A stretch of DNA of 63,268 bases, the filler included, from Conidiobolus incongruus B7586 (Eukaryota), in NCBI GenBank assembly GCA_000697335.1. It is 6 parts of 6 records of this genome, joined end to end, with 100 filler letters (N's around TTAATTAATTAA, not from the genome) between each part and the next. Parts side by side here need not be neighbours in the genome. Positions count along the whole stretch, not along the records: positions 58,873 to 63,268 come from JNEM01006405.1; 5 more parts are not named here. One strand, 5' to 3'. Below the pieces are notes generated by a model. The model searched no databases, was not told the DNA's origin, and saw only the letters and a program-made list of their open reading frames with translations. This document shows, one piece after another, positions 26,568 through 63,268 of this stretch; within the stretch, counting starts at the first letter, position 1; each line of letters opens with the position of its first letter. The translations under genes and the position numbers were made by a program.

Positions 26568-27619
26568 AACAATATTAATTTAGTTGAATCCAATTATTAG
26601 CATTTTCAATTGTTATCAACGAAGCCATCTAACCTTATTTATACTTATCTTTATCAACTCAAAGCAGATAAAAGGAATTTATATCAAACTAAATTAATTC
26701 CAATTCTAGTATTTCCCTCAATCATGGATTTATCCTTTAGTATCAATTTAAAACAATTTAACTTATACTCTATCCCTTATATATCAGGCAATGATTTATT
26801 TTAATAATTAATTTATAATAATTCAAAACACAGATTTGTTCCAAGTTTAGTAGGTGATTAAATACCATTTCTGTAACTAAAGCATCCATATTTTTGGCAA
26901 TTGATGCATTTGACATCATTATAGAATTTCTATTCTAAATAATTGGCTTAAAATGGAAAAGGTATTGAAAATATTAAATTCCAAAAATTATAATTTAAGT
27001 TTGGATTAACCTAGTTACCTATTAAATATGTTAATAAAGTAAACATTTCAATAAAGTTGTGAATTTAAAATTATTCCTATGAGGATATTTAATATAAAAT
27101 ATAAAATATTATATATTATTAAAATTCATTATTGGTTAAATGACATTATAAAAAAATAAATTAAATTAAAAAAGTGTTAAATTATCAATTTAAATAAGTT
27201 AATTAATATTTAAATTTGTAATTTATTATTATTAATACATAAATAAATTGATAATTAAATGATATATACTTAATGATTAAAATAATATTAAAGTATTAAG
27301 TACCCAATTTATATATTTATACTCTCTAATATGAAAAAAATACCAATTTATCAAAATTTTATTATATTCATTTGTTTTAAAAAACTATTGTATTCATTTT
27401 GAAAAATAAAAATCAAATTTTTATATTTTAACTATAAATGATAATTTGATTAAAAATGGCAAATTTTTTAAATTTTGATTTTTCAAACATATTGTTAGTT
27501 TTGATAAATATATTTTATATAAGATTTATAAGTGATTTAATGATTTCAATTAGATATTTATATATATTCTAATTTATAATTATTTTTTGTTATTAAAATA
27601 TTTTTATTTAAAAATTATA

Positions 27620-28085
27620 TTATATTCTAGCTAGATAATTATTATTAAAGTTTTTTATTTTATTATTATTAAAGCTCAATCATAACCCATTTTAAATTAT
27701 TTAAACTTTATAAATAATCTTAAAAATAATGCTTTATCTTAAACTACTATTTATTGTTAAATTTGGTATTTTAAAATTAAAAATGATATTATTGAAAATT
27801 TAATATAATTTTAAAAACTAGTGATTATTATTATTATTATTTCTTTTATTAATAAAATAAAAACTTTATTAAAAAGAACCTATTATTTTAATTAACTAAT
27901 TTTTGAATTATTTAATATTAACTATATAAATATATTGTTTATATTCAAATTTAATTTTAATTTTATTAATAAAAAAATAACTCTTTTATTATTTAACTAA
28001 AGTTTAATAAAACTAAAATTACTATAATTAAATGCAAAAGATTTTTATATTGAATTATTAAAATAAAAAAAATATTAAATATTTA
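27620..28085 (+). mobile_element. Hypermutated mariner transposase relic (5' part, truncated by gap)
   Basis: IFKNNALS*TTIYC*IWYFKIKNDIIENLI*F*KL reverts to about IFGDNALSQTTIYRWIRYFKTGNDTIEDL.RSGRP; K*LFYYLTKV** reverts to about KWLPHHLTEAQQ (WVPHEL motif). Start approximate. Confidence 0.65.
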
Positions 28086-41099: not shown

Positions 41100-44000
41100 A
41101 TTTTAAATTTTATTTATAACTTATTTTATTTAAATCTAAAATTATAAATTATAATGATATTAAAAAAAATACTTGTATATAGCTTTAATAATGATAGTAT
41201 CTTAATTATTAAGTAAATTTAAAACTTTAGTTTTTAAGTGTTTGTTACTCTTTAAATAACTTATATTAAATAACTTTTGATTAAGAAAAACATAATTTAA
41301 AAAGCTTAAATCTAATAAACTAATTACTTTACTATAATTAATATATTAAACCACCTTTTTAGTGTTTTTAAAGATAAACTAACTATTTATAATAATTCTA
41401 AAGGCTTATATAAGCTTGAAAACTATTTTAAAAATATAAAGAATTATCTTAATTTAATTTTTAATGAATATTTAAACAATATCTTTAAATTAGCTATTTC
41501 TTTTTTAGAAAAATCTACTTATACTTGGTAGTTAACTTATTACAAGCTTAATCCTAAAGAGTTTTTAGGGAGATAATTTATTATAAGAATATAAACCTTT
41601 AAATAGTTAGAAAAAACCCTTAAAGAAAAATATTACTTAAAAAATTAAGTTTGATTAACAAGAGAAAAGCTTTCTTAACTTAAATAAATAACTTCTAAAA
41701 GATAATTAATTAAGAAATTTAATAAGATATGTTTAAATATATTAAATATCATTGAAGAAGAATAAATCTATAAGTTATTATAATGCTTTAATCTTAAAGT
41801 AAAACTCTAGTTAATTAATAGGGAATATTTTAATAATATGTTTTTTTTAATATTTATAATATAACAATTATGATTAATGATATTTTTTACTTTATAACTA
41901 AATCTTTTTATCTTAAGAATTAATCTTTTAAAATTATTTTAATCTACTTAAATTTCAAATGACAAATGTTTTTGTTTTAAAACTTTATCAAAAAACCTTT
42001 AATAAAGGAGTTAAAGTTTACTTAAGAATAAATAAAAGTTGCTATTATTATTAAAGGACATAAGTTAATTATAGAGTTAATAAATGTTTTCTCAAAAAAC
42101 AATATCTGTTTAATTCTCAATAATTTTAATTTATTAACTATAAATCAAACTTAAATAATATCAATATCATCTTAAAATCACCTCTTTTATAATTAGTTAG
42201 CAAATTCTAATCTAATCTACAAAAGTTCTAATAGCCTAATGATTCTATAAATTAAACTATATATATTAGAGAGATCTAACTAATTAAACTACTAGAAACT
42301 AAAAATATTCTAGTAACTAATTTACTTAATAATTCTCTATCTTTAATTATCACATTATTATTTATTTTAACTAAATATTTTATAGATATACCTGTTAATG
42401 TTTTAATTAACTTTAATTGTTTTAGTTATATTATTTTCTCTTTTATTATTATAAAATTATCTTTATCTATTTAAAAAAAATAGCTTAATAATCAAATATA
42501 TTAATAATTCAATAGAACAAGTATTTAACACTATATTTATATACTTATCATTATTTCTTAATTACTCTCAATATATTAAATTCTTAGTTGATAATATTAG
42601 TTACAATTTTATACTAAATTAAAATTAATTTGAATACTATAAACTTTTATCTATAAATATTACTCTAGAAGGTTACAAATCTATTCTATTTATATTTTCA
42701 AAGAAATTAATAAAATTAATCTCAAAAAATTTGCACTATTTTATTATATAATTACCAAATATTTTACCTAATACTAACTTTATAATTTTTTCAAATAATT
42801 TTATTATTATAAGCAAAAACCAATATAAAAAACTAATTAAAAGCTTTCATAATTTATAAAGATATATATTTGTTTATTATTTATCTATTAGTATTTTATT
42901 TATTAATTTTAATGAAGTTATAACTAATAACTATTTTTTATATAATATAATAAGTTAATTTACTAATGTTCTTAAACTTATAAGTAGATTAACTCTTAAA
43001 TATAATATTAAACACAAAATTAAATTTCTCATAAATACACAACTATATTTAAAGTTTATTTATCATTTATCTCTTGAATAATATTAAACTTTAAAAGAAG
43101 AAATCTAAAAATTACTTGAAAATAAAAATATTAAACCTTCTTCCTTACTATAAAAATCTCTTATCCTCTTTATATAAAAGGCTGATAGTGGTTAAAAACT
43201 ATATATTGATAATTATGTTTTAAACTTTAAAACTATCAAGGATAAAACTTTATTATTAAACCTTTATGATATTAAAGATAAACTACTTAAATCTACTATA
43301 TTTATTAAAATAAATGTTAAAAATAATGATTATAATATTAAAGTTAAAGAAAATTCTATTCCTTTAATTATTTTCAATACTCTATTAAGCTATTATAAAT
43401 TTAATATTATAAACTTTAAAATATATAATGTTTTTGTAACTTTTATATAACTTATCAATTCTCTTTTCAACTTTATCTTTAATAACTTTATTATTATTTA
43501 CTTTGATAATATCTTAATTTATTTAAAAATTAAACAAAAATATATCTAATATATAAAAAAGTTTTACAAATTATTCAAGAATATAAATTACTTTTAAAGC
43601 TATTAAAATATATTATTAATGCTTCTTCTATCTTTTTCTATAGTTATATTTTTTTTAAAGAGTTAATATTGATTTAACTAAACTTAATAATATAAAAGCT
43701 TTTACTATACTTATAAATAAAAATCAACTTATGTTTATACTTAGATTATTAAATTACTTTAAAGATTTCATTGATTCTTTTATTGAATTTATAACTTTTC
43801 TAATTAATCACTTGAGAAAAAACTTTTTTTTAAATAAATCCTACTATATACTTTTTATATAAATGCTTTAATTTTTTATATTACTAATACTCTTTATTTA
43901 TTTTTGATCTTAAATTACCTATTATTATTTTTATTAACTTTAATTTTTTTATAATTAGTAGATAGTTAATCTAATTTAGATTTAATTTATATTTTACCCA

Positions 44001-46150
44001 TTAACTATAAAATAAAATAATAAATAAAAAAGAATAGGTTAAGTTTAACCCTATAAATATCACCTTAAAGCTTATAAAATTCTAATTAAGAAAAATAAAG
44101 CTAGCTAAATTAAAATACCTAGTTTATAAATAAAAACTCTTTACTTTAGTAGATATAATCAAAAATCATTTATATTTCTTATCTTGCAATTTTTTTTAAT
44201 ATTTACAAATTATAGATTACTTATCTATTTAAATACTCAAAAACATTTATTAAAAAAATAAGTTAAATAAATTAAAACTATCCAAGCTTATTTTTTCTTT
44301 ATCTAATATCTTTTAGGTTAATAAAATTATATTGTAGATACTTTGTTAAAAAATCTTACATACCTATTTTTTATTCTAATTATAAAAACCTAGTAGATAT
44401 TAACATAATAGTTATTAATAAAGGAAATAAAAAAATTATTAAATTATTTTAAAAAACACTACTAAATAATAATTTCTTTATTTTCATTAAAAAAAACTCT
44501 TGAAACTATTAGAAAACTAATTAAAATATATTAAAAGATTTAAAATCATTGATAACTTACTATATTATAATAATTGTTTATATGTTTCTAATATTCTTAA
44601 GATTTAACAATTAATATTTAATGAGTATTATAACTTATTTATTAAAGGACATTAAAACTAGTTAAAGATTGCTGAAAGAATTAAAATAAAATATTACTAG
44701 CTTTCCTTAGTTAAATTAATTTAGAAATAAATTAATACTTATAATATATATTAAAAAATTAAATATAATACCTAACTAAAATATAGTAAACTTATTCCCT
44801 TACAAATCCCTAATAAAATTTAATAACAAATCTAACTTGATTTCATAGAAATTTTTAAATCAACAACTAGTTATAATAACTTATTAATTGTAATTGATTT
44901 ATTCTTTAAGTATATTTATTTTTTCTTTGTTTCAAAACTTTTATAATCAAAGATATTACAAAACTATTATTCTCTAATATTTTTACCTATTATAAAATTT
45001 CATAAACTATTATATCTAATAAAGATATATAATTCAACTCTTAATTTTTAAAGTTACTATCTTTTTCCTTTAAGATTAATTTAGCTATATCTATTACTAA
45101 TCATCAATAAACTAATAAACTTGTTAAAAAAAACTATTAAAACCTTAAAATAAATGATTAAAGTTTATATTAACATTAAATAGTTAAATTAAGATACCTA
45201 TATCTATTAATTTTGATATTTATTTAATACTTTTATTAACAAATCAACAAGTTTTAGCCTTTATTTTATTAATTATAATAAATATCTTAACTTAATAATT
45301 ACTTTAAAACTTTAAACCAACTTATCTATAGATGTTGTTGAATTTTAATCTAATATTAAATATATCAATTTCCTTTTTTAAATTTAACTTAGAAGAGAAT
45401 TAAAGGATTATAAAACAACAATATTTAAAATTATTTAGGAATCCTCTTAAATATAAAATTAATATATTTATATATTTAAAATAATCTACCTTTAAACTTA
45501 CCTTATTTAAATCTAACTTAAATCTAAAATACTTGCTATTATATTATAATCCTTATAAAATTTAATCTATTAATTTAAATTTTAAAAATATTACTTTAGA
45601 ATTACCCTTAATTTTAAAAATTAACTTTACCTTTCATATATCTAAAATCAAACCTTATTTTGAAGATTTTAATATTTTTCTTAATTAATTAAAAACTTTA
45701 AAACTAGATCTAATTATTAATTAAGATAAAAAAATACTATGTTGATTATATAATTAAATTTAAATCTATTAGCAATAAGCTTTATTTCTATATAAAATAA
45801 ATAGGTTATTTTATTAAAGAAGCTATATAAGAACCCCTATAAAATATTAAGAATATCTTAACTTATTATACCTACTTATAAAAATCTAAGGAGTGTATTT
45901 CTTTTAAAAAACTTATTAAAAGAGTGTTAAAAGATTAGTTCTTTAAATTCTTATATATACTTTCATATAATTCAATTAACTATAAATTATATGATTAATT
46001 TATACTTTTATAACTAAATTAATTATATACATTATATTGAATTATTTAATAAACTGAGTTTTTTTATCCTTTCAATACTTATTATTTCTTATCTTTTTAA
46101 CTATTTTTAAGTTTGAGACTATATCCTATTAATATTATAATATATTAACA
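41100..46150 (+). mobile_element. Hypermutated Ty3/gypsy chromovirus LTR retrotransposon (gag-PR-RT-RNaseH-IN-chromodomain plus 3' LTR)
   Basis: Degraded motifs in order: gag (LAISFLEKSTYTW*), CCHC-like knuckle near 42040, protease LINFNC (from LIDSGC) near 42400, RT IKPSSLL*KSLILFI*KADSG*KLYID (from IRPSSSPWGSP.LF..KADGGWRLCID) and YFDNILIY near 43500, integrase LIPLQIP...**QI*LDFI near 44800, chromodomain YIK*IGY....I*EPL near 45800. 5' boundary approximate. Confidence 0.88.
45925..46150 (+). repeat. 3' LTR of the gypsy element (TGTTAA...TTAACA)
   Basis: Follows a purine tract (AAAAGAG) after the chromodomain; 6-bp inverted termini TGTTAA/TTAACA. Confidence 0.6.
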
Positions 46151-46324
46151 CTACCTAATATAAATCTTAATATATTAGTAACTCACCCCAGTTTAAAGCT
46201 TAATTAAACTCTGTTTATATTTGCATACTATAGTTATATTATAATATTATAATTTATGTCATACTACTCTTATATTAAGTTTTCCTCTATACTATATTAG
46301 TACTTACTACTATACTTATATTTT

Positions 46325-46972
46325 TAAATAATTGAAAAAAGCTTTTAAAAAAATATTACTTAAAAGATTAAGTTTAATTAACAAGAGAAAAGCTTTCTTA
46401 ACAAAAATAAAAAACTTTTATAAGGTAATTAATAAAGAAATTTTATGAGATATACTTAAATATATTAAATATCATTAAAGAAGAATAAATTTAGATGTTA
46501 TTATAATGTTTTAATATTTAAGTAAGATTTTAATTAATTAATAAAAAATACTTAAATATTTTTTTTCTGATATTTATAATATAATAATTATATATGAGGA
46601 TATTTTTTATTTTATAATTAAATTTTTTTACCTAAAGAATTATTCTTTTAAAATTTATTTTAATCTATTTAGATCTTAAATAATAAATATTTTTATTTTA
46701 AAGTTTTATAAGAAAATATTGAATAAAGAAGTTAAAGTTTATTTAAAAATAAATAAAAACTGTTATTATTATTAAAAAACTTAAGTTAACTATAAAGTTA
46801 ATAAATATTTGTAAAAAAAACAGTATTAATTTAATCTTCAATTATTATAATTCATTAATTACAAATTAAACTGGAATTATATTAATATAACTTTCAAACA
46901 CCTTTTTTATAATTATTTAACAAATTTTAAATTAATCCATAAAATTTTTAATAAATTAATGATTTTTTAAAT
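46325..46972 (+). mobile_element. Second, independently mutated fragment of the same gypsy family (gag region)
   Basis: Colinear with about 41600-42250 (shared ATTAACAAGAGAAAAGCTTTCTTAAC); differences are mostly transitions. Confidence 0.85.
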
Positions 46973-47072
46973 NNNNNNNNNNNNNNNNNNNNNNNNNNNN
47001 NNNNNNNNNNNNNNNNTTAATTAATTAANNNNNNNNNNNNNNNNNNNNNNNNNNNNNNNNNNNNNNNNNNNN
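46973..47072. other. Scaffold gap with spacer
   Basis: N run with TTAATTAATTAA. Confidence 0.95.
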
Positions 47073-47478
47073 GAATATTTCATTGTTCCCAGTTTTAAGG
47101 CAAGTTTCCTGTACTATCAGTGCAACTGATTCCTTCCAAAGTAATAGGGATTCTACCATCATCAGAATTATCAATGAGGCGGAATGAGTTCAAATTCATG
47201 TTGAAATTACCAGGTTCATAGTCAAAACATTAATCAACTACATGAGCAACTGTAGATTGTTGAGTTTTAGTATTGGTGACTCTAATACACATGCCACATA
47301 CAGCTAAGTTCCCAAAGACAGATGGGCCAATGGAAGTTCAAAGAGGATATATGCCAACCGGATAGGTGCATTTACCCTTTCCTTTATCAGGGTTGAGGTC
47401 ATAAGAAGTATTACCAATTCCAGTTCTCAAGTTATTGAAACCCAAGAAAGATAAATCAAATAATTGAATTGAGTGCAT
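47073..47478 (-). pseudogene. Expansin-like pseudogene, 5' part (3' end in gap)
   Basis: Reverse complement is identical to 50346-50742, including in-frame stops; ATG at 47476-47478. Confidence 0.8.
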
Positions 47479-48348
47479 AATAAATAGTAATTAATATAAT
47501 TTAATTTTTTTCATTATATTGAATGAATATTAAATAACATTATACTACTTACAATAGCTAATATATTTTACTAACAAATTAATTATATTCTGAATATAAT
47601 AACAAATATTTAAGTTAACAATTAATGATATTTAGTCTAAAAATAGATTCGGTTAATTTAGACAAATTAAGGAATGCGATTGTGTTTGGATTGATTTTTT
47701 CCGGATTTATGTGAATTGCTTAATTGAGTTTAAATAATATAAAGTTGATTAGTGTGTTGTCAAATGACTATGAAATCCATATTGGTATTGATATTATTTT
47801 AATGTTTTATAATTGATAATTTTTTAATATGAATAATTCTTTAGAATATTCTATAATTCCTAATAGAATTAAATTAAATTTTTTTATAATTATATTCTTT
47901 TTTTTTCAATTAATTATCTTGAAAAATTTTATAAAATTTAATTAAATATGAAATTCTATTAGATATATTTTAAGATTTTTTTTATATTTCAATAAAAAAA
48001 ATGATTTCATAACTTATATTATTAATAACATTTTAATTCATTTATAATTATTGAAACTTGATTTATTAAAAATTTTAATAGTGTATAGTGTGAAAAGTTC
48101 TATTAATAACTATGGTAAAATAAATGGTTTTTGGGTATGAAAGATATAGATTAATTCATTAAATTTTAATATATTATTAGTATTAAGAGTGACATCAAAT
48201 TAATCTTATTAATTTAAAGTTATTTGATATTGTATTGATTTCAATATTGGGCGGCTGATAATATGGAAATAAATTGGTATATAAGGAGTCATGATAGCTT
48301 ATGAGTCACTACTAACAATTGTATAATATTTAATTCATTTTAACAATA

Positions 48349-48987
48349 ATGTACAAATTAATATTATCACTTTTAGCTGTGTCTGTCCAATGTGCCATTT
48401 CTGGATCTGGAAATGCTAGCTACGACACTAACCCTGATGGATATGGTAAATGTAGTTTCCCTGCTGGTTACTCTACCTACTTCACTGGTGTTGGACCCTC
48501 AGTCTTCGCTGGATCTGCTTCCTGTGGCGCTTGCATTGAAATCACCAATCCTAAGACTAAAAAGACTGTTATCGCAAGAGTTGTTGACCAATGTGCTGGA
48601 TGTGGGGCCGGTGACTTGAACTTGAACAAACCTGCTTTTGAACAAATTGGAGATCCTTTTGATGGTCGTATTCCTGTCACCTGGAAGGAGGTAAGATGCC
48701 CTAATACCCCCGGAAACTTGGTCTACCAATGGTGGGCTGGTAGCAACAGATGGTGGGCTGCCGTCCAGATTAGGAATCATGCTCAAGCTATTACCAAATT
48801 GGAAGTATTTGATGGAACTCAGTATAAGCAGATGAGCCGTCGTGATGATAATTATTTCGTCGTTTCTGGAGTTGGTGCTGGCCCTCTTAAGATCAGATTG
48901 ACTGGTACTGATGGTAAAACTGTCGAAGATGCTGCCGTCCCTATTCTTGAAAACGGAGGTCAAGTTACTAGTGGAGGTCAGTTGTAA
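48349..48987 (+). CDS. Secreted expansin-like protein (EXLX: DPBB/GH45-like D1 plus CBM63 D2), intronless
   Basis: Signal peptide; CGACIEI, VVDQCAGC, AF.QIGDP..GRIPVTW; D2 GSNRWWAAVQIRNH closely resembles Bacillus EXLX1 GSSRWWAAIQVRNH. TATATAAG about 70 bp upstream. Confidence 0.92.
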   Translation: MYKLILSLLAVSVQCAISGSGNASYDTNPDGYGKCSFPAGYSTYFTGVGPSVFAGSASCGACIEITNPKTKKTVIARVVDQCAGCGAGDLNLNKPAFEQIGDPFDGRIPVTWKEVRCPNTPGNLVYQWWAGSNRWWAAVQIRNHAQAITKLEVFDGTQYKQMSRRDDNYFVVSGVGAGPLKIRLTGTDGKTVEDAAVPILENGGQVTSGGQL

Positions 48988-50336
48988 GTTCTGATTAGTA
49001 TTGTTAATAAATTATTGTGATGAGGATTAGTACTATAAGGTAATAGTCTCTTTGATTCGACCAATTATGATATATAAACTATATGCAATTATATTAGTGT
49101 TAATTACACTTCTGAACATTATTAACCGATTCATCAAAGTATAAAAAGTAATATAATACTATATAGGTTATCAGATTAGGGCTTTTCAATAAAAATTAAA
49201 TATCAATTAAAAAATCATCATATGACTATTTTTAAAGGGATATGAACCAAATCAATTTTAAAATGGTGCTGAAATATATCGATTTGAACGATATTTTACT
49301 AAAATATTTTAGGCTTATATTAAATCAGATATAAATAACTATTATTTATATAAAAACTTTCTAATGTTAAACATTTTTCAATTTTTATATATAATTAAAG
49401 GCTATTTCAAAACTTTATTAGATATGAATATAATATAACTATTTATAATTGAATCATATTTACTAGTATTATTCATTTGATATAAATAAATCATAACAAA
49501 TAATTAAATATTTGAACAATATATAATCTGAAAATAAATTAATTATTCCCAATATTAATTTATACTTAATTCTGATTATTACAAAAATGACTTATAAATT
49601 GAAAAACATTAATTATAATTTTATAGTATATCACAATTTTAAAGAAATGTTATTATTTTAGCAATTTCATAAACAAGATAATGGATGAGTAGTTATATTT
49701 AAAAATAGCTAGCTGATTTAATCAAAAATACAAAATTTTTTCGTAAAGGTTGATATTCAGAACCTCTAAATTTTATTTTTAGATAAGTAAAAAATAAATG
49801 TTACTAGTTTATACATCACTAAATAACCTTAAAGTTTAAAGAAATACTATGATTGGATAAATTTCTGCTTAACCTGAAAGTTATAATTGAAGTATGTATT
49901 AAATTGATTCAATATATATGAGATAACTGAAAAAAAAATAAATACTCTCTTTGACTCAAATTTTCATCACTTCAAACAAATATTAAATGGATAATGAATA
50001 TTATTTCAAAAAAAAATTTATAACAATTAATTAGTTAATGGATTAAGAATTAAAATCAATGTTCTAATATAGGACCACTTATTTTAAGATTAAAGTTTTT
50101 TAAACATGATTAATTTTTATTCAAAATATACCTGTTATATGAATTAACCAAAATTCTATATTTAGCTGAAAATTTTAACATTATCTGTAATTTAGATTAG
50201 GTATTGGGAATTAAAAATTAAAGATTTGACTGTTTTTGGTGAGTGATGAATTTGAAAAAGTATATAGTTTAGAGAAGACTGTTGGTCTAGTAATAACAAC
50301 TTAATTTTTAAACAGTCAATAATATCTTTTCAAATA

Positions 50337-50981
50337 ATGCGTTCTATTCAATTATTTGATTTATCTTTCTTGGGTTTCAATAACTTGAGAACTGGAATTG
50401 GTAATACTTCTTATGACCTCAACCCTGATAAAGGAAAGGGTAAATGCACCTATCCGGTTGGCATATATCCTCTTTGAACTTCCATTGGCCCATCTGTCTT
50501 TGGGAACTTAGCTGTATGTGGCATGTGTATTAGAGTCACCAATACTAAAACTCAACAATCTACAGTTGCTCATGTAGTTGATTAATGTTTTGACTATGAA
50601 CCTGGTAATTTCAACATGAATTTGAACTCATTCCGCCTCATTGATAATTCTGATGATGGTAGAATCCCTATTACTTTGGAAGGAATCAGTTGCACTGATA
50701 GTACAGGAAACTTGCCTTAAAACTGGGAACAATGAAATATTCAATGACATATAGTTGTCCATACCAGAAACAATCCTCAACCTATCAAGTATATAGAAAT
50801 CTTTGCTAACAATCAATGGGTTACTCAATCTCACAGAAGTGACAATCAATTCATTGTCAGAGGAGTTGGTAATGGTCCTTATGGAACTTGTGTTACAGGT
50901 GAAGATGGCAAATCTGTTGAAGATAACGCTGTCCCAACTTTGGAACAAGAAAGTATTGTTGTAAGCAGTGGAAATATCTAA
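50337..50981 (+). pseudogene. Full-length expansin-like pseudogene
   Basis: Colinear with the 56691 copy over 215 codons; in-frame stops at about 50476, 50583, 50718, 50733 and 50745. Confidence 0.9.
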
Positions 50982-52541
50982 TTGTGATCTATTTTTATGA
51001 ATATATCATATACATTATATTTGTATATCACATTTAATCAAGAAATTTCTATTGAATATACCTCTCTATTCCTGTCAATAATATTTATTCGAATTATATA
51101 TAATTTTTATAAATCAAGTATATTTTCTATTTTATATTTTAAGCTATAACTGGAAAACCTGAATGAAATTCATATTTTTTCCATATCCATAATCAGTTAT
51201 ATTTTTAATTTAAATAAAAAACTAACTCAATTTTTATTATCTTTATTAATTTTATTTTGAAGATCCAATTAAATTCCTTGAGGTAATAATATATGTTACA
51301 GGCAAGTATTTTGATAATAAAGCCACTCCTATGATGTCATCAGATGTTGTCATCACTCTTGATTCACTTATATACTACAAAGCCTTATTAGCCATCTATA
51401 GTCTTTATCTCAGTATTGATGAACTTTAACCATTTAGAAAGTGGGTTATAATCCATTTACCCTGGATATATAACTTTAATTAAAAACACTACAATGAAAA
51501 ACCTTTTTCCATCATAAATCCATCAATTACTTAAATATTTGAGTTATTACTTACCAATTGGTGATTAAGTCAAGAACTAAGATAATATTAAATCTTTAAA
51601 ACCTTTGGTTAATAACATTGTGGATAATTGTGATTTGCAAACAATCCAAATTATAATTTCAATATTTTTGCCTTTAGATATATGTAATCAGTAGAATATC
51701 TAATTTTTTACCAAATTTTTAATATTGAGTTATAATTTATCATCAATATATATTGATTTGTTATTTATCAAAATATTATAAGATTTTTAATTTTATAAAT
51801 AAAATTCAGCTTTATTATGCTATATTTATGTTAATTATAATATTCTTATAAAATATATTATAATTATTCTGGATTTTAGGTTGATTTAATTAGATTTTTT
51901 AATTTAATATTAAATTATCATTGAATTTGATTTATAAAGTATTATTTAATTTAAAAAATAAAATCATATTTAATATTTTATTGCTTAAACTTAAGATTAA
52001 AAAATTGATATTAAAAGAACTGATAAAATAATATAGATATTATAAATAATATAATTTAAACTTTAAAATGACTAATATACTTCAAATTTATAATAAAATT
52101 TTTATATTATTTTTCAAAAAAACATTACTATAAAAATTAAACAAAAGCAAAATTTTAAAATTAAAATTAAATATAATTTTTAATAAATAGTATAAATTAT
52201 TAAATAAATGAATAATATAATGCTAATATTATCTTTAATAATTAAAAACCTTTTATTATAATTTTGGTAAACTTTTAACATTTAAAAACTATTGATTATT
52301 ATAATTAAATTTAATATTTTAAATATATATTAAATTTGTATTTTATGATTTTTTTATATAAATAAAATTTCTGGTAATTTAAAATAAATTTAAAATTATA
52401 AATTATAATCTAGAGAGTATATATAATATATTAGTATCTTTTGATTAGTTATATAAAAAGTCTTATATAATTTTACCCATATATAATTTATAATTATTAT
52501 TTACAAAATTAAATAATTTATAATTATTATTTACAAAATTA

Positions 52542-52641
52542 NNNNNNNNNNNNNNNNNNNNNNNNNNNNNNNNNNNNNNNNNNNNTTAATTAATTAANNN
52601 NNNNNNNNNNNNNNNNNNNNNNNNNNNNNNNNNNNNNNNNN
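52542..52641. other. Scaffold gap with spacer
   Basis: N run with TTAATTAATTAA. Confidence 0.95.
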
Positions 52642-53159
52642 CCTATCCCCTTTACACCTCAGTTGGTCCTTCTGTCTTTGGCGACTCAACCGTATGTGGT
52701 ATGTGTATCAAAGTAACTAATACTAAGACCCAACAATCTACTGTGGCTCATGTGGTTGATCAATGTTTGAACTGTGGACCTGGAGATCTTAACATGAATT
52801 TGAATTCATTCCGTCTTATTGGTAATCCTGATGATGGTAGAGTTCCTATCACATGGGAAGAAGTTCGTTGTACCGATACTACCGGAAACTTGTCTTATAA
52901 TTGGGAACAAGGAAGTAATCAATGGTATGCAGTCGTCCAAATCAGAAATAATCCTCAACCTATCAAAAGCTTTGAATTTTTAGTGAACAATCAATGGGTT
53001 GCTCAAACTCGTAGAAGTGACAATCACTTCATCGTACAAGGAGTTGGCAATGGTCCTTATAGAATTCGTGTCACTGGCGAAGATGGTAAATCTATTGAAG
53101 ACAACTCTGTCCCAATTTTGGAACAGGGAGGTGCTGTTGTAAGCAGTGGAAATATTTAA
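52642..53159 (+). CDS. Expansin-like protein, 5' end hidden in gap
   Basis: Open frame YPLYTSVGPSVFGDSTVCGMCIKV...GSNQWYAVVQIRN...VVSSGNI*. Confidence 0.85.
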
Positions 53160-53379
53160 TATATGCATATTCAAATGTATTTTTAAAAATTCAATTATCA
53201 GTTATGAAAGAAATCACAGATTTTTTAATTTCTAATTTTCCAAATATATTGCTAGTTTTATAAAATAAAATATATGCAAAATAAATCAGAGAATGATATT
53301 TTGAAACTATATATATATTCATTCAATATTACTTTTTAATAAAATATTTTTATTGAAAAATATATTATTGAATTTAATC

Positions 53380-53880
53380 ATGTTTAAACTAAAAAGTGAT
53401 CATAAAAAGTTTATTATTACTATTAAGACTCAATCACAAACTTTCTAATATCATTTTTAAATTGTAAACAAAATATTAATTAAAGCATTATTTAAAACTA
53501 CCATTTATTGCTAGATTTATTACTTAAAAGCTAAAAATGATTTTATCTAAAATTCATCAAAATCTAAAAGATTAATTTTTACCAATACCCTTTTATTAAA
53601 AAATAAATATTATATTAAAAAAACTTTTTATTTTAGCTAAAAAAATATCAAAATAGCTCTATATTAATAATAAAAGTAAATTTTATATATTAAAATTTAA
53701 ATTTAATTTGATTTATAAAAATATTAAATAAAAATCATTTAACTTATTAAAAGCTTAAAAAATCAAATAATTGTAATTAAATAAAATTTATTAAGATATA
53801 ATTAAAAACAAAGATTTATATATTAAATCATTATTATTGATGAATTTTAAACTTTTTGGTATAATCTTTTATTTAAAGCA
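53380..53880 (+). mobile_element. Hypermutated mariner transposase relic
   Basis: ALFKTTIYC*IYYLKAKNDFI*NSSKSKRL (from ALSKTTIYRWI.YLKAGNDSIQDSPRSGRP), KNIK*KSFNLLKA*K, IIIIDEF* (from IIT.DESW, first catalytic Asp). Nucleotide similarity to 27.7 kb. Boundaries approximate. Confidence 0.65.
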
Positions 53881-56690
53881 AAAACAATTACTAAGTTAAA
53901 ACACTCTTTAATAAGTATAATATTAGTAAAGCCAATATAATATAAAGGAAGACTTAATTTAATATCCATATGATAAGTTAATATATCAGTAAATAAAGTT
54001 TATTTAATTTTTGTAAATAATGGGTCAATATAGATAAATTTAATTTTATATTAGATAATTTCAAAATAATAAAATATTGATAAATATAGTTATAATCTTA
54101 AGAATAATAATAAAAATTAAAAAATATTAAAGAAAAGAAACTCTGATTTTTAGTTAAATTAATATTATTTATATAATTAAATTATATTTTATATAATTAT
54201 AATTATTTTAGGTAAATAAAAAATATACTTACATAAAAGAAAATTCTTGAAAATATATTTAAATGATTTTTTGAAATATCAAATTTTAGTTTTAAATGGA
54301 ACTATATTAAAGTAACAAATGATTACCCAAAATATAATCAAAAGTTATTAATAATAAAAAAGAGTTTTAATATTATATTATATATTATATATTAATATTT
54401 CTATATCATATTTTAAATATTATATTTAATTTTGATTTTAGAATTTTATTATTATTAGAATTAATCAAATGATATTAAAATATAATAAAATTCATTTTGC
54501 AATATCAAATCATAATAATTTATTTTTGATTTTAATTTATTTTATACTTTAGCATATATAATGTTATAAAATGAATTATGATTAATGTTAAAGTATTCAA
54601 ATTAGACGCTAATAGTATATTGTTGGTTTAACTCTTGCTATTATTAGATCTTATTATTATCAATATTCATTATCATTTTTATGCTTTCATATCTCTTATT
54701 GAAAATAATAATTAAAAATTTGAATCTTATTTGAATGTTATTTCTAATTCTTTGATCAGTTTTAAAGCCAATTTACAGGTTTATTTAATGATTTCATTTC
54801 AACTGTTTTTTAATTAATATTATATCTTTTCAGATGATGTCTTAATTTGGATTTTTTTAACTTGACAAATAATTTGATCGATATTTTATTTTGATCTGAT
54901 CGTCACGATAATATATTACAACTAAAGTCTAGAATTGATGTATCAATGTATCAAAAGTTACATATATTAGCAAAATATAAGTTGGTACTAGAATAATCTA
55001 TTTATATATACTGATGTTTTAATATTCTTCAACTTAATATATTCAAAATTTTGATACAATTAAGATATCTATCAAATATATTATTGAAATATCAAGAAAT
55101 TTGAAGTTTTAATTATTAATAGCTGAACTTATTTCAGTATATATAAATTATATTTTATAACTATAGAAAATAAGAGTCCAGGATTAATGAATATTAAATT
55201 AATATTTTTTTTATTTATTTTTATATATTAATGACTTAATTTGACATACAATTATAATTCATTATTATTAGTAGTAGACTTTTACATCATATTCACCCAA
55301 CTCTAACATTAATTATAATATTTATAATAATTTAATAATACTGTTTATTCGTAATTTTATTTGAGAATACATGTAATAAAACTAAAGCATATGATAATTT
55401 TCTAATATTGAATTATTAATAATTTCATAATTTTGTACCATCCAGTTCTAGTATTAATTAAAAATATATTAAAATTAAAAGATATTTTATCAGTTGATAT
55501 TTAAAAATTTATTATAGAATTAAACTCAATTATACATTCAAATAAATATATTCTTATAGCAGTATTGTTTTGTATATTATTCAATAGATCGTTATATAAA
55601 TTCTGAATCAACAATTATTGAATAATGATAATACAATAGTGTCCGAGCATCATTGATAAATCATTTAATTGATTTTATTATCAATAAAATTAGAATAGTA
55701 TTATTCAAGTACTATAGTTCTAGTTTGATAATTATTAATCTTTCTAGAAAGTTATTCATTATTATAGGTTTTTAGAATGTATGTTTAGTCGCCTCATTTA
55801 CAAAAAATGATATTTGCTATTTCATTATTACATCTACCAATTTAATTACTAACCAATTTCTATTGATATATTGCTGAATTGAGCTTAATACTATATTTAT
55901 CTTGGATTGTATACAGTATCCGTGACTGATGATTCTTTTGTATGTTTATATTTTTGCTTCAAATTAATTTCCTGTTATAAAATGAATAATAATGTTCTAG
56001 AAAGATTAGTACATATTTTTCAGATATTAAATAATAATGAAATCATGAATAATTTTGCATTTTAATGCAGATATTTTTAAATAATAAGGTCATTTGATGT
56101 GATATTAATTACAGCATTTAACCACCTTTTCAGTTCATTAAAGGAAGCTATTTGGAACCTATTAAATGTTTTTGTATGTGCTGATTAAATAAATTCAATA
56201 ATATACAAAATCGTACAACAATCAAGGATTGATTCAAGTTATGATATATCTCTTATAAGCTTAATACTAATTAATAAAAGTGTTGCTAAATAATTTAAAT
56301 ATTAATATGAAAAGATATAGTCTCTTATTACTATTCATGGTGTTAAACAGTATTTATCAGTAAGAATTATATGAATTGATTAAATGATATATTATACTGT
56401 ATGATGAATGAAAAATATGTAATAAATATTCAATATTGAAACAATTATTTTAATCAAGTACTTTTCCATATTTTTTTTTCAAATTCATCAAAATCTATTT
56501 TTAACAATTTAAATTTAGACATAATCACCCAAATTTGTGGTCAAGTACTGTGAAATTTCAATTAGAGGATTGAATGATTTCATTTTTTATTGTGAGAAAT
56601 GAATTTGAAAAGATATAAAACCTAATCTAGTATGTTTAATTTCGATATATCATAGTTTAATATTTTAATAATTTATTAATATCTAATATA

Positions 56691-57380
56691 ATGATGCGCA
56701 CTATCCTATTATTTGCTTTATATATCTTGGGTGTAAACAGCTTAAGAAGTGGGACTGGTAATGCTTCCTATGATATCAATCCTGATGAAGGCAAGGGTAA
56801 ATGTACTTACCCAGCTGGTACCTATCCCCTTTACACCTCAGTTGGTCCTTCTGTCTTTGGCGACTCAACCGTATGTGGTATGTGTATCAAAGTAACTAAT
56901 ACTAAGACCCAACAATCTACTGTGGTTCATGTGGTTGATCAATGCTTGAACTGTGGACCTGGAGATCTTAACATGAATTTGAATTCATTCCGTCTTATTG
57001 GTAATCCTGATGATGGTAGAGTTCCTATCACATGGGAAGAAGTTCGTTGTACCGATACTACCGGAAACTTGTCTTATAATTGGGAACAAGGAAGTAATCA
57101 ATGGTATGCAGTCGTCCAAATCAGAAATAATCCTCAACCCATCAAGAGCTTTGAAATCTTCGTCAATAACCAATGGGTTGCTCAAACTCGTAGAAGTGAT
57201 AACCAATTCATTGTCAGAGGAGTTGGTAGCAGATCTTATAGAACTAGGACCACTGATGAAGATGGTAAATCTGTTAAGGATAGCTCTGTTCTCATTTTGG
57301 AACAAGGTGCAAATGTAGTTTACAGCCCAAATATCAAGTTGATTTCATTAAATTTGATACACATATATTTTGTGTATTGA
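56691..57380 (+). CDS. Secreted expansin-like protein with 15-aa C-terminal extension from a lost stop codon
   Basis: Signal peptide plus D1 and D2 motifs. Paralogs stop after ...GNI; here ATC AAG continues. Confidence 0.85.
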   Translation: MMRTILLFALYILGVNSLRSGTGNASYDINPDEGKGKCTYPAGTYPLYTSVGPSVFGDSTVCGMCIKVTNTKTQQSTVVHVVDQCLNCGPGDLNMNLNSFRLIGNPDDGRVPITWEEVRCTDTTGNLSYNWEQGSNQWYAVVQIRNNPQPIKSFEIFVNNQWVAQTRRSDNQFIVRGVGSRSYRTRTTDEDGKSVKDSSVLILEQGANVVYSPNIKLISLNLIHIYFVY

Positions 57381-58309
57381 AGATATCGATTTACTGCAAA
57401 GAATATATTAATATTTACTAGAGTATTTTATGTAAATCCCAGGAATTAATTTTATTCTTTTTATAATTTTTATTTTAAATGGAGAACAGGTTAAGAATTT
57501 GTATCTTTTTTCATATCCAAACCAAGAAACTTTTTAATTAAAACTAATAAATAAATAAATACTAAATACTTTTAATCTACTTTAATATCATATTAAGCAT
57601 CTAATTCAGTTTCTTGAAATGATAGAAAATTTATCTATTATTTATTAAAATAAAGAGCTTTTAAAATTTTTAAATATCACATTTATCAGGGCCATCTAAC
57701 ATAATAATGCACTTTTGCAATTCCCTATCAAATAAATTAGCATTTTTGTGGTTTAGACTTCAATAGGCCAATATTTGCTATTTAATATTAAAACAATAGT
57801 AAAATTGAGTCAAATTTTGATTAAAACTTAACTAATGAAAAGATAAAATAGTTCTGAATATTACATCATTTGAATGTGAAAAAATTCAAAAATACAATAA
57901 AAATCGTAATAAAAAGATATTATAGAAATAATTACATCCAATTCAAATATAAAAATTCTAATATAAAATAATCAATGTACTATTAGCTGATAACATAGAT
58001 TTTACTTCTTATCTTAAAATATAATATTATCGTCAAGTTATCACAAATATACAATGAATATATGTCCAAAATATAATTCTGGAAAAGTGAAAACTATATA
58101 GTTAATATTAGTGTTATCAAATTTAAAATCATTTGTACTATAATTAAAATTTGATTATCATATGATAATATTATAAATGAAAAGGAAATAAGATTTAATA
58201 TTTGGATAGCTTTGACAACAAAGCTAAAATTGAAATTAAATAATCATAATATTTATTGAATATTAGATTACAGATATTATAATAATTGGGCAATACTAAT
58301 AAAATACAT

Positions 58310-58772
58310 TTAGAGTTGGCCACTACTGGAGACATTACCACCATCTGCTAGGACCTTGACAGATTCATCTTGTACAACTTTGCCATCCATACCAGTGATT
58401 CGAATGTTAGCTGGATTAGTTGCTCCATTAATAATCCAAATGTTATTGTTGTTTCTAGAAGCTGGTTTCCATTGTCCATTGACATTGATTTCAATACTCT
58501 TAATAGCTTGAGCTGAGTTTAAGATTTGTAAACCAGCCCACCATTCGTTACTTCCAGCTTGCCAGCGATATTGGAGATTTCCATTAATGTTAGGACATCT
58601 GACTTGCTTCCAAGTGATAGGGACATTTCCTGATGCAGGATCACCAATTAATTGGAAAGCATTGGCATTGATATTAAGATCACTTGCTCCACATCCACTA
58701 CAAATATCAGCTACATTGACAATGACTGATTTGTTGTTATCAGTGTTAGTGACTTCGAGACAAGCTCCACAC
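58310..58772 (-). CDS. Expansin-like protein, 5' end hidden in gap
   Basis: Minus-strand frame CGACLEVTNTDNNKSVIVNVADICSGCGASDLNINANAFQLIGDPASGNVPITWKQVRC...GSNEWWAGLQILN...GGNVSSSGQL*. Confidence 0.88.
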
Positions 58773-58872
58773 NNNNNNNNNNNNNNNNNNNNNNNNNNNN
58801 NNNNNNNNNNNNNNNNTTAATTAATTAANNNNNNNNNNNNNNNNNNNNNNNNNNNNNNNNNNNNNNNNNNNN
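58773..58872. other. Scaffold gap with spacer
   Basis: N run with TTAATTAATTAA. Confidence 0.95.
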
Positions 58873-61094: not shown

Positions 61095-61706
61095 TTAACA
61101 CACTAATATCAATTAATTTATCATTCGCATTTTGAGTGCAGTTAAAAATTATTCATTTCTTTCTCGATATTTTGTTAATTCACAAATTTCCTTTGATTAT
61201 AGTATTTGATTAACGCATTCAAGATATTTTGCCAAATAACAAAATTCAAAGGTTATTGTGCTGTTCAGATTACTTTGACCAATTATTATATACTTTTGAA
61301 ATTATCTTATATATTTTTAATCTTTAAATTTAAATTAATTGGCCATTATAAATTAAAATCTTTTATAAGATATTATTTAAATGAAATTTCAATTTATAAT
61401 TCATAATTTCATAATATTTATACCTATATCATATTCTCATTGATTTATTAAAGTTATTAATTTAATTCTTACCTAATTTCAGTACTATTCAATAGTTAAT
61501 GCTTAATTTGTAAATAAGCTAAAATATATAGCATATGGTAATTATCATCTAAACTAAAATTTACCATATTTAACCTAAAATTGAAATTATTTTACTTCAA
61601 TTATAATATTAGTAAAATAATGTATTAATATAATCAAGTTATTTAATAATATCAGCTTAAATTTTACTAAGTTAAGTTTATTATTAATACTATTCTATTA
61701 TTAATA

Positions 61707-63268
61707 CACTAACCTGCAAAAGTGAGTTATAAAATCAAAAATATATATATTTTAATTAATAACTAAAATAGTTATATATATTAAATTACTTGAAACTATA
61801 ATATATAATTAAGATATATTATTTGATAATAAATAAATATATTTAGATATATTTAATAAACTATTAGTGAAAATATTAACCTTTAATATTTAATTAAGAT
61901 AAGTTATAAATTTACAAGTTTTTGAGATAAAAGGATATATTTAATAATATATAACCATATCTTTTTTCTCTCTTTGTTATTATTTTATATAATATTTTAC
62001 AGATATATTAAATTTTTTTATTAGTATTATTATACTTAAATCCCTCTTTAAGAAGATTTACTTGTATATTAATTAACTTTATAAAAAAGATAAATCAACT
62101 TATAATATTACTAGAATTACTAGTGTTAATTAATCTACTATAGTTAAAACTATTAAGAATAATAATAAAAACACATTTAAACTTAAATTTAAATGTATTA
62201 AAATTATAGATAAATATAATAAAAGTATATTTATAAGTTAATTAATATAGATAAGTGTGGTATTATTATAAAAATATAGCAGGAATTATAAAATTATACA
62301 AAAATATTAATTAGCACTAATATTATTATATGTGTTTTATACTAGCATAGATACTATTTATACTTTAAGAAAAAACACCCCTAATTAAAAAAATCCCACT
62401 ATAAAATTAAGCAAAAGTTTAAATGTCATTACTAATATTAAACTAAAACTAATTAAAGTAAAGCTATTTAGTTTAATAAAACAAAAATATATTTTAATAA
62501 ATTTAATAAAAAAGCTAAATATTTTAAAAAAGATATAAAACTACTTTATAACTATTATATTAATTTTACTTAAAAATACAATAATAGGTTAATTATTATT
62601 TAAGGATATATATTATTTTTAAATATAAGATATCTTTATAAAATTAATAAGGGAATTAATATTAAGATATATTAAAGTATTCTAAATAATAAATTGAAAA
62701 AAAATTATTAAATAATATAAGTTAAACAAATTTAATATTATTTTTTAATAAGATAATACTTTTTATTATATTATAGCTTTTATTACCAAATAGCTTAAAA
62801 ATAACAAAATAATAGTTATAAAATAGCTTCTTTAATTTTTTAACTTTAAGCTAATTAAATACTTTTAAGGTTAGTTAAAAAAAGTTATTAAAGCTTTCCC
62901 CCTAATAAAAAATTTAAATTAGTTTTAAAAATATATTTAAGAAATATAAAATAAGATTAACCCTTCTTAATATAAAAAGTTAATTAATTTTATACCTTAT
63001 AAACTTAAAGAAATTAGAAAAGTTAAAGGTAGATATACTAAGTTTTAATTTTTTTTATCATTAAAAACTTACAAATTTATAATTTATCTTAGGTAAAATT
63101 TAAAGGTTTATATTTTAACCAATTAATAACTAAATATCATTATTTAATAATATATATAATTAATAAATATAACAGATTTTAATTATTTAATTTAAGTTTA
63201 TTTTATTAAACATTAATTAAGTTATTAGTAAAAATATAAGTGTTTTTGATTTTATAACTTATTTTTAT
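61707..63268 (+). mobile_element. Tc1-family (DD34E) DNA transposon, hypermutated, with about 225-bp TIRs; right end runs off the window
   Basis: TA then CACTAACCTGCAAAAGTGAG left end; 61716-61932 matches the reverse complement of 63051-63268. Transposase relic 62032-63048 with *FNK (WSDE), KYNNRLIII*GY (KYGGGS.IIWGC), F**DNTFYY (FQQDNAPCH), *LL*FFNFKLIK (WPPQSPDF.PIE; 34 residues between D and E) and KGRYTKF*. Confidence 0.88.

Follow-up and report, generated by a model that had tools for sequence, protein, structure and literature searches.

RIP in Neurospora and other Pezizomycotina (RID, DIM-2) converts C:G to T:A on both strands, is confined to repeats and affects CpA strongly, leaving full-length elements full of TAA and TAG codons, with a positive composite index and possible spill into the flanks. 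All these features recur at the locus described here, a dead Tc1 transposon at the end of a 63,268-nt stretch of DNA from Conidiobolus incongruus B7586 (the whole stretch analysed, hereafter the window). Unlike in Neurospora RIP, however, the host belongs to Zoopagomycota, the loss of CpG is as complete as that of CpA, CpC and CpT are changed at about one third of the CpA rate, and near-identical gene duplicates appear to be spared. The Dim2 mitotic mutator of Zymoseptoria tritici likewise targets C>T changes at CpA to transposons; in the accessible text it is tied to a methyltransferase and needs no cross, whereas here we infer the link to an enzyme, and more than 98% of its changes fall at CpA with CpG spared, whereas CpG, CpC and CpT sites were also changed in our copy (PMC8016269). 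This Dim2-dependent CpA mutator is the nearest experimental precedent. The CpG decay of Basidiomycota (Masc2/DNMT1) resembles our locus in the total loss of CpG from repeats, likely via methylation, but the available part of the source gives these genomes a CpG signature only, whereas CpA/TpG is depleted, and not enriched, in our case (PMC4352252).

Within the order to which our host belongs, Stajich et al. (2024; PMC11105155) reported RIP indices for Entomophthoraceae (24.2% in Zoophthora radicans and 2.4–5.7% in three others), proposed RIP outside Dikarya and named candidate methyltransferases with a double PF00145 domain, which, according to the authors, cannot be read as RID homologues. 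The idea of RIP in Entomophthorales thus predates our analysis. The accessible text of that study gives values for Zoophthora, Entomophaga, Entomophthora and Massospora and none for Conidiobolus s.s., and these are window-based indices only, whereas changes are read here by codon and by copy. Badet and Croll (2025; PMC12543289), by contrast, considered such signatures unique to Ascomycota and scored 8/8 Zoopagomycota, C. coronatus included, as 'no_rip'; as far as the available parts of both papers go, RIP-like mutation outside Dikarya is therefore disputed in print. The eight AT-rich 4-mers that the latter source tabulates for C. coronatus had a transposon/intergenic enrichment of 1.05–1.93 in our window, none reaching twofold because the intergenic DNA is already 82% AT, and this low enrichment suggests a possible reason why a k-mer screen could miss the signal. 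In the accessible part of PMC5751038, RID/Masc1 is recorded only for Pezizomycotina, for two members of Taphrinomycotina and for five of Agaricomycotina, plus a bacterial-like enzyme in a chytrid. The term 'RIP' is absent from the available text of the C. coronatus genome paper (PMC12387763), and in the open literature (as distinct from subscription papers) we found no study that follows C>T change copy by copy in Conidiobolus.

The window comprises six contigs joined by 100-nt artificial linkers (28086–28185, 40877–40976, 46973–47072, 52542–52641 and 58773–58872), each made up of 44 N, a 12-base six-frame stop and 44 N, which are not biology; the features discussed below are collected in Table 1. 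An early-diverging host had been predicted from the sequence, and the HAS1 helicase gene agreed with this: its core was 438/448 identical to that of C. coronatus, with which it formed a clade (support 100/97) within Entomophthorales (100/99), in a tree of this one marker built from 20 rows picked among 120 listed hits and including no ascomycete row. On this marker, the host is assigned to Conidiobolus (Entomophthorales), near but distinct from C. coronatus. An ascomycete host with ordinary RIP was ruled out by this placement, and no ascomycete name occurred among the 120 listed HAS1 hits.

Table 1. Positions of the transposon features, host marker and control genes along the window.
Feature	Position	Strand	Remarks
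HAS1 helicase gene	38212..39888	+	Host marker; on a different contig from the Tc1 element
Ty3/gypsy retrotransposon relic	40977..46972	+	Whole contig; PDB search with its RT, X included, hit Ty3 RT (E 3e-8)
Tc1 fragment of 93 nt, same family as the element	40978..41070	-	Ungapped 82% match to 62129-62221, with 13 transitions and 4 transversions
Expansin-like gene cluster (control)	47073..57330		Pairs 75-99% identical, without CpA scar; further copy at 58310-58772
Long-TIR Tc1 (DD34E) element	61707-63268		Right end cut by the window end
TA target dinucleotide, left element end	61705..61706	+	From the sequence; contigs of other copies (29 and 35) diverge just before 61704
Left long TIR	61707..61932	+	Inner limit approximate; 222 columns aligned with the right arm, 74% identical
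Dead Tc1 DD34E transposase frame	62032..63048	+	338 codons, 26 stops; ATG, TGG and CGN codons all gone
-1 frameshift, one base missing	62221..62222	+	Other copies have an extra A behind 62220
Catalytic triad positions	62475..62859	+	First D (62475) reads AAT, second D (62752) remains GAT, E (62857) reads AAA
+1 frameshift in poly-A run	62697	+	Exact base ambiguous, ~62697-62706
Right TIR	63053..63268	-	~10 bases short at the window end; contigs continue past 63268

Tc1 (DD34E) transposons with long TIRs encode a 338-aa transposase with HTH and DDE_3 domains and share the TA target with the window element, which is dead. The element was assigned to this group by an HTH+DDE transposase recognised by collinearity, by the 34 residues separating the second D and the E of the triad (D241 to E276), and by its TIRs and TA, with the right end seen only in contigs extending past the window, where the missing terminal bases of the right TIR are present. 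The left end follows the TA and matches the end of the intact relative L003. Both structural claims of the original prediction, a full-length frame of about 339 codons with two 1-nt indels and TIRs that are still recognisable, were borne out. A frameshift-aware alignment showed the frame to open with ATA where relatives have Met, to close with a stop ending at 63048 and to be collinear with the 338-aa protein P0124, the two 1-nt shifts being the only ones; both recurred against 23/24 relatives, the 24th being a 247-aa protein that ends short of the first shift, and codon-size gaps are added by some relatives. The stops comprise 19 TAA, 7 TAG and 0 TGA. The TIR arms of ~220 nt are best conserved over their outer 53 nt (83%), and the TIRs of relatives L003 and L004 are of similar length (~180–220 nt).

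A Pfam scan of the raw transposase pieces gave no domain match, and phmmer with the C-terminal piece (X at stops) recovered five proteins at E ≤0.001 among 1.84 billion, four of them carrying DDE_3. HTH_Tnp_Tc3_2 and DDE_3 are present in two of the intact relatives, P0124 and P0125, and P0124 opened the way to a subfamily of intact transposases, 24 of which were aligned to the window frame (62032–63045). The closest intact relatives, from metagenome and run assemblies, reached only a 60–77% transition-aware match to this frame. Intact fungal-type Tc1 transposases of the same subfamily (L001–L080) are common on short metagenome contigs, and the six loci measured had a GC content of 46–57% and 46–86 CpG per frame. 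A degenerate TIR pattern had 0 matches among the metagenome contigs, and no homologue of a 66-aa frame beside the element was found among longer proteins.

The substitution spectrum was read against the four closest (L001–L004) of 80 fetched loci, at the 403 sites where all four agree. C:G>T:A changes were present at 160/216 C/G sites, compared with 3/187 for A:T>G:C and 13/403 for transversions, and both strands were affected alike (C>T 61/88, G>A 99/128). Corrected for repeat hits, this corresponds to ~1.4 C:G>T:A changes per site versus 0.017 for A:T>G:C, a ratio of ~85, whereas the intergenic GC of the window (18%) predicts ~4.5. The asymmetry is the window copy's own, because intact relatives compared with one another over a similar distance had roughly balanced transitions and differed by 180–320 transversions. 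Conserved motifs had been claimed to be recoverable by reversing transitions, and this proved correct: among 129 columns at least 80% conserved in 22 relatives, 48 were unchanged, 75 were rescued by undoing C>T/G>A only and 6 were not, the shuffled-codon control for the rescued columns giving 26 ± 4 (maximum 45). Over 337 codons, reversing C>T/G>A raised the matches to P0124 from 99 to 238 (null 68), compared with 126 (null 81) for G>T/C>A and 131 (null 94) for A<>T; undoing these other classes gains little over chance. Nine conserved Trp codons now read TAA (6) or TAG (3) and never TGA, a pattern compatible with an initial change at CpA followed more slowly by another at CpY. The claim that the frame was destroyed almost purely by transitions stands for the spectrum but has to be softened, as ordinary ageing has left its mark too: there are two indels, and no fewer than 8 A:T>G:C changes are almost exclusive to the window copy (8 among the 40 rows listed, with 99.6–99.95% of the other depth keeping A/T).

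Classified by the 3' neighbour, the mutated sites were 35/37 for CpA, 12/13 for CpG, 25/41 for CpC and 11/17 for CpT (CpR versus CpY, p=7e-5), which establishes the order CpA ~ CpG > CpT ~ CpC in the window copy. A conserved CG had become TA in 5/7 cases. CpC and CpT were also changed, and the process is therefore not plain CpG decay; the same counts agree with the proposals that the changes are not confined to CpG and that TGG>TAA implies targets outside CpA. CpG-only methylation decay was rejected, given the mutated CpA sites and the depletion of CpA/TpG (CpA o/e 0.51 in Tc1 and 0.57 in Ty3), with no TpG/CpA excess. The excess of CpA over CpY, with CpG equal to CpA, was found in both the window copy and the Ty3 relic, and a table of 26 sites across the family (below) was mixed.

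The Ty3 relic, five pieces of which had no match in a Pfam scan, contained 0 CpG in 5996 nt versus 29 expected. Its C fraction at CpA was 0.09, compared with 0.21 in intergenic DNA and ~0.48 in genes, and CpT was not under the intergenic level. The relic thus carries the same dinucleotide scar as the Tc1 element and the genes do not. In this one 63-kb window, the C>T scar was restricted to repeats, single-copy DNA being spared.

Other repeats were also observed. A direct repeat of 650 nt at 82% identity (41598–42252 and 46323–46972; Ti/Tv 1.85) flanks the Ty3 pol and was initially read as LTRs; it is either an LTR pair or a repeated coding part of two elements. AT-rich repeats of ~600 nt with 65–73% identity lie at 1–630, 1908–2431, 27413–28080 and 53211–53828; the three copies counted had 0 CpG and a CpA fraction of 0.10, and the family shows weak similarity to 46553–46700. 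The Ti/Tv of these short repeats was 0.6–0.9, and the older repeat pairs in the window as a whole had many A<>T differences (Ti/Tv 0.6–1.9). The 600-nt repeats and the 650-nt pair are too old or too loosely aligned for a reading of context.

Six expansin-like genes within ~12 kb (47073–58772), with Barwin/DPBB_1 matches in both of those scanned, served as duplicated controls. Linked duplicates shared 60/60 CpA sites over 409 nt at 99% identity and 63/70 over 487 nt at 92%, and the CpA fraction was kept at 0.52, with CpG at 0.15 versus 0.30 in other genes (these are paralogues and not independent). These duplicates fit targeting of transposon chromatin better than a system sensing any duplication; being coding sequence, they could owe their state to selection or recent origin, and two 99% pairs lie at contig starts and are possible assembly echoes. 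The CpG o/e of the expansin-like genes was 0.15–0.53, compared with 0.47–0.98 elsewhere in genes, and their CpA was normal; this deficit possibly means that a duplicated gene family is methylated at CpG yet escapes transposon-type damage. In the pair 52642–53128/56821–57307, identity fell from 99% in the first 300 nt to ~80% beyond, as in a gene-conversion tract or a contig-start assembly echo.

Four runs of one sample, from which all the copy data come, contain the stretch; this sample may be the source of the window, and the matching sequences are therefore treated as sister copies and not as independent occurrences. At 80% likeness, 27,280 contigs in X1 and 36,257 in X4 aligned to 61300–63268; runs X5 and X7, under another label, had 0 and 1 matching contigs, and no RNA run with the stretch was listed. 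The summed contig depth was ~100,000 versus ~30 in the flank and was not taken as a copy number. Places differing in at least 5% of the depth comprised 340 transitions and 18 transversions in X1 and 354 and 18 in X4, with one indel, in counts that leave some differences aside and of which 40 of 384 rows are listed. Between 62325 and 62445 (121 nt), 26/26 variable sites were transitions, with no indel. The depth share of C at these 26 sites was 0.02–0.99 for CpA-type and 0.03–0.89 for CpT-type sites, the values scattering widely whatever the context and CpA not being clearly preferred, in a table biased towards window-like contigs. Among the listed rows with a mutation in the window copy that most others lack, only 4/25 had a 3' purine versus 57% expected (p=5e-5), and CpY therefore survives best across the family. 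Loose contig ends at 62405–62420 and 62819–62850 come from copies or subfamilies retaining more G/C; less damaged copies are therefore present in the same sample.

On the sequence evidence, we lean towards a putative mutator linked to a methyltransferase of the DIM-2/DNMT1 class, acting on transposon chromatin, as the likely source of the C>T changes on both strands of this dead high-copy Tc1 element. Repeats would be marked as heterochromatin, the methyltransferase would attack the cytosines of the marked repeats in all contexts, and deamination, at a rate far above the passive one, followed by replication would fix C>T. Repeated rounds would carry CpG through TpG to TpA and TGG through TAG to TAA, until the frame is dead while its length and the TIRs survive. 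PF00145 also covers the tRNA methylase DNMT2. All entomophthoralean fungi of the eLife set carry PF00145 genes according to the accessible text (PMC11105155), DIM-2 exists in early-diverging fungi (PMC7862722, available part), and reviews, as far as their accessible text goes, rate 5mC as sparse in Zoopagomycota and as almost below detection in early-diverging fungi (PMC11258239, PMC13297926). The outcome resembles RIP and fails the tests of both CpG-only decay and a CpA-only Dim2 mutator. The RIP-like defence originally predicted was thus upheld for C:G>T:A change on both strands, in repeats only and beyond CpG. This support does not extend to a homology trigger, to action in a sexual cycle or to a system separate from known DNA methyltransferases; linked duplicates at 92–99% identity show no CpA loss. 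These spared duplicates and the reported lack of RID tilt the balance towards the methyltransferase-linked mutator, neither of them being decisive.

True RIP would sense duplications by DNA–DNA pairing around the sexual stage, through a system that lacks canonical RID and is either ancestral or convergent. It would account for CpA as the top context, for the changes on both strands and for the composite RIP index, which was +0.77 for Tc1 and +0.61 for Ty3 versus -0.47 and -0.42 for two gene-rich contigs. The 400 nt to the left of the element, with a CpA fraction of 0.12 versus 0.21 in intergenic DNA (p=0.003) and no CpG, look like leakage into the flanks, although this low-CpA stretch may be either spill-over or an older repeat. 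The accessible data for C. coronatus list 0 repeats of 1 kb at 95–100% identity and 555 at 80–95% (PMC12543289), and the indices of related Entomophthorales reach the 24.2% cited above (PMC11105155, accessible text). The expansin-like duplicates, by contrast, keep their CpA, whereas Neurospora RIP is still active at 90–95% identity (PMC11969663, available part), no RID is listed for Zoopagomycota in the accessible part of PMC5751038, and CpG is erased as fully as CpA. We therefore regard homology-triggered RIP without RID in Conidiobolus, through another methyltransferase preferring CpA and CpG, as unlikely.

Passive decay, by which CG and non-CG 5mC in repeats would deaminate spontaneously over a long time without a dedicated mutator, seems to us slightly harder to sustain. 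Pure CpG decay would raise TpG/CpA, yet both are depleted, and CpA received ~2.9 hits per site versus ~0.017 per A:T site, with only two indels in 1 kb. Methylated CpG usually shows a mutation excess of about tenfold, and the values found here lie far above this. The total loss of CpG in all repeat classes and its partial loss in the duplicated expansin-like genes would nevertheless be expected from such decay, and repeat-restricted CG/CHH 5mC in Phycomyces and repeat 5mC in Linderina, described in the accessible text of PMC11258239, speak in the same direction.

An AID/APOBEC-like cytidine deaminase editing transposon DNA is very improbable. Within the Tc1 frame, TCA ranked last among the C contexts (3/202 versus 15/173 for ACA), and two TCA sites retain C in just 2–5% of the family depth, but the pattern is set by the 3' base, the Ty3 relic has no 5' preference (C fraction 0.13–0.17 for all four 5' bases), the two strands of this cut-and-paste element are altered alike, and the sole deaminase match in the window is a dCMP deaminase domain. 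The near absence of TCA in the frame at 62032–63048, compared with 104/1186 in the Ty3 relic, may reflect a 5' T preference limited to the Tc1 family. The dCMP deaminase domain gene (PF00383; 3724–4338, minus strand) is most likely a housekeeping gene unrelated to the damage. A contaminating RIP-competent ascomycete or an assembly artefact is scarcely credible: HAS1 and the element do lie on different contigs and the 66-aa frame beside the element is without homologue, but the Tc1 family is very abundant in the sample, the CpG-free short repeat family occurs on contigs with host genes, a 2611-nt contig of ordinary depth spans the flank into the element start, and the listed HAS1 hits include no ascomycete.

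The locus adds evidence, at the level of codons and of copies, that C>T change in a culturable relative with a small genome is extreme, confined to repeats and not limited to CpG; both trigger and enzyme can now be tested directly. If this were true RIP without RID, RIP-type defence would be older than Dikarya or would have evolved twice, and AT-rich early-diverging genomes would hide RIP from k-mer screens.
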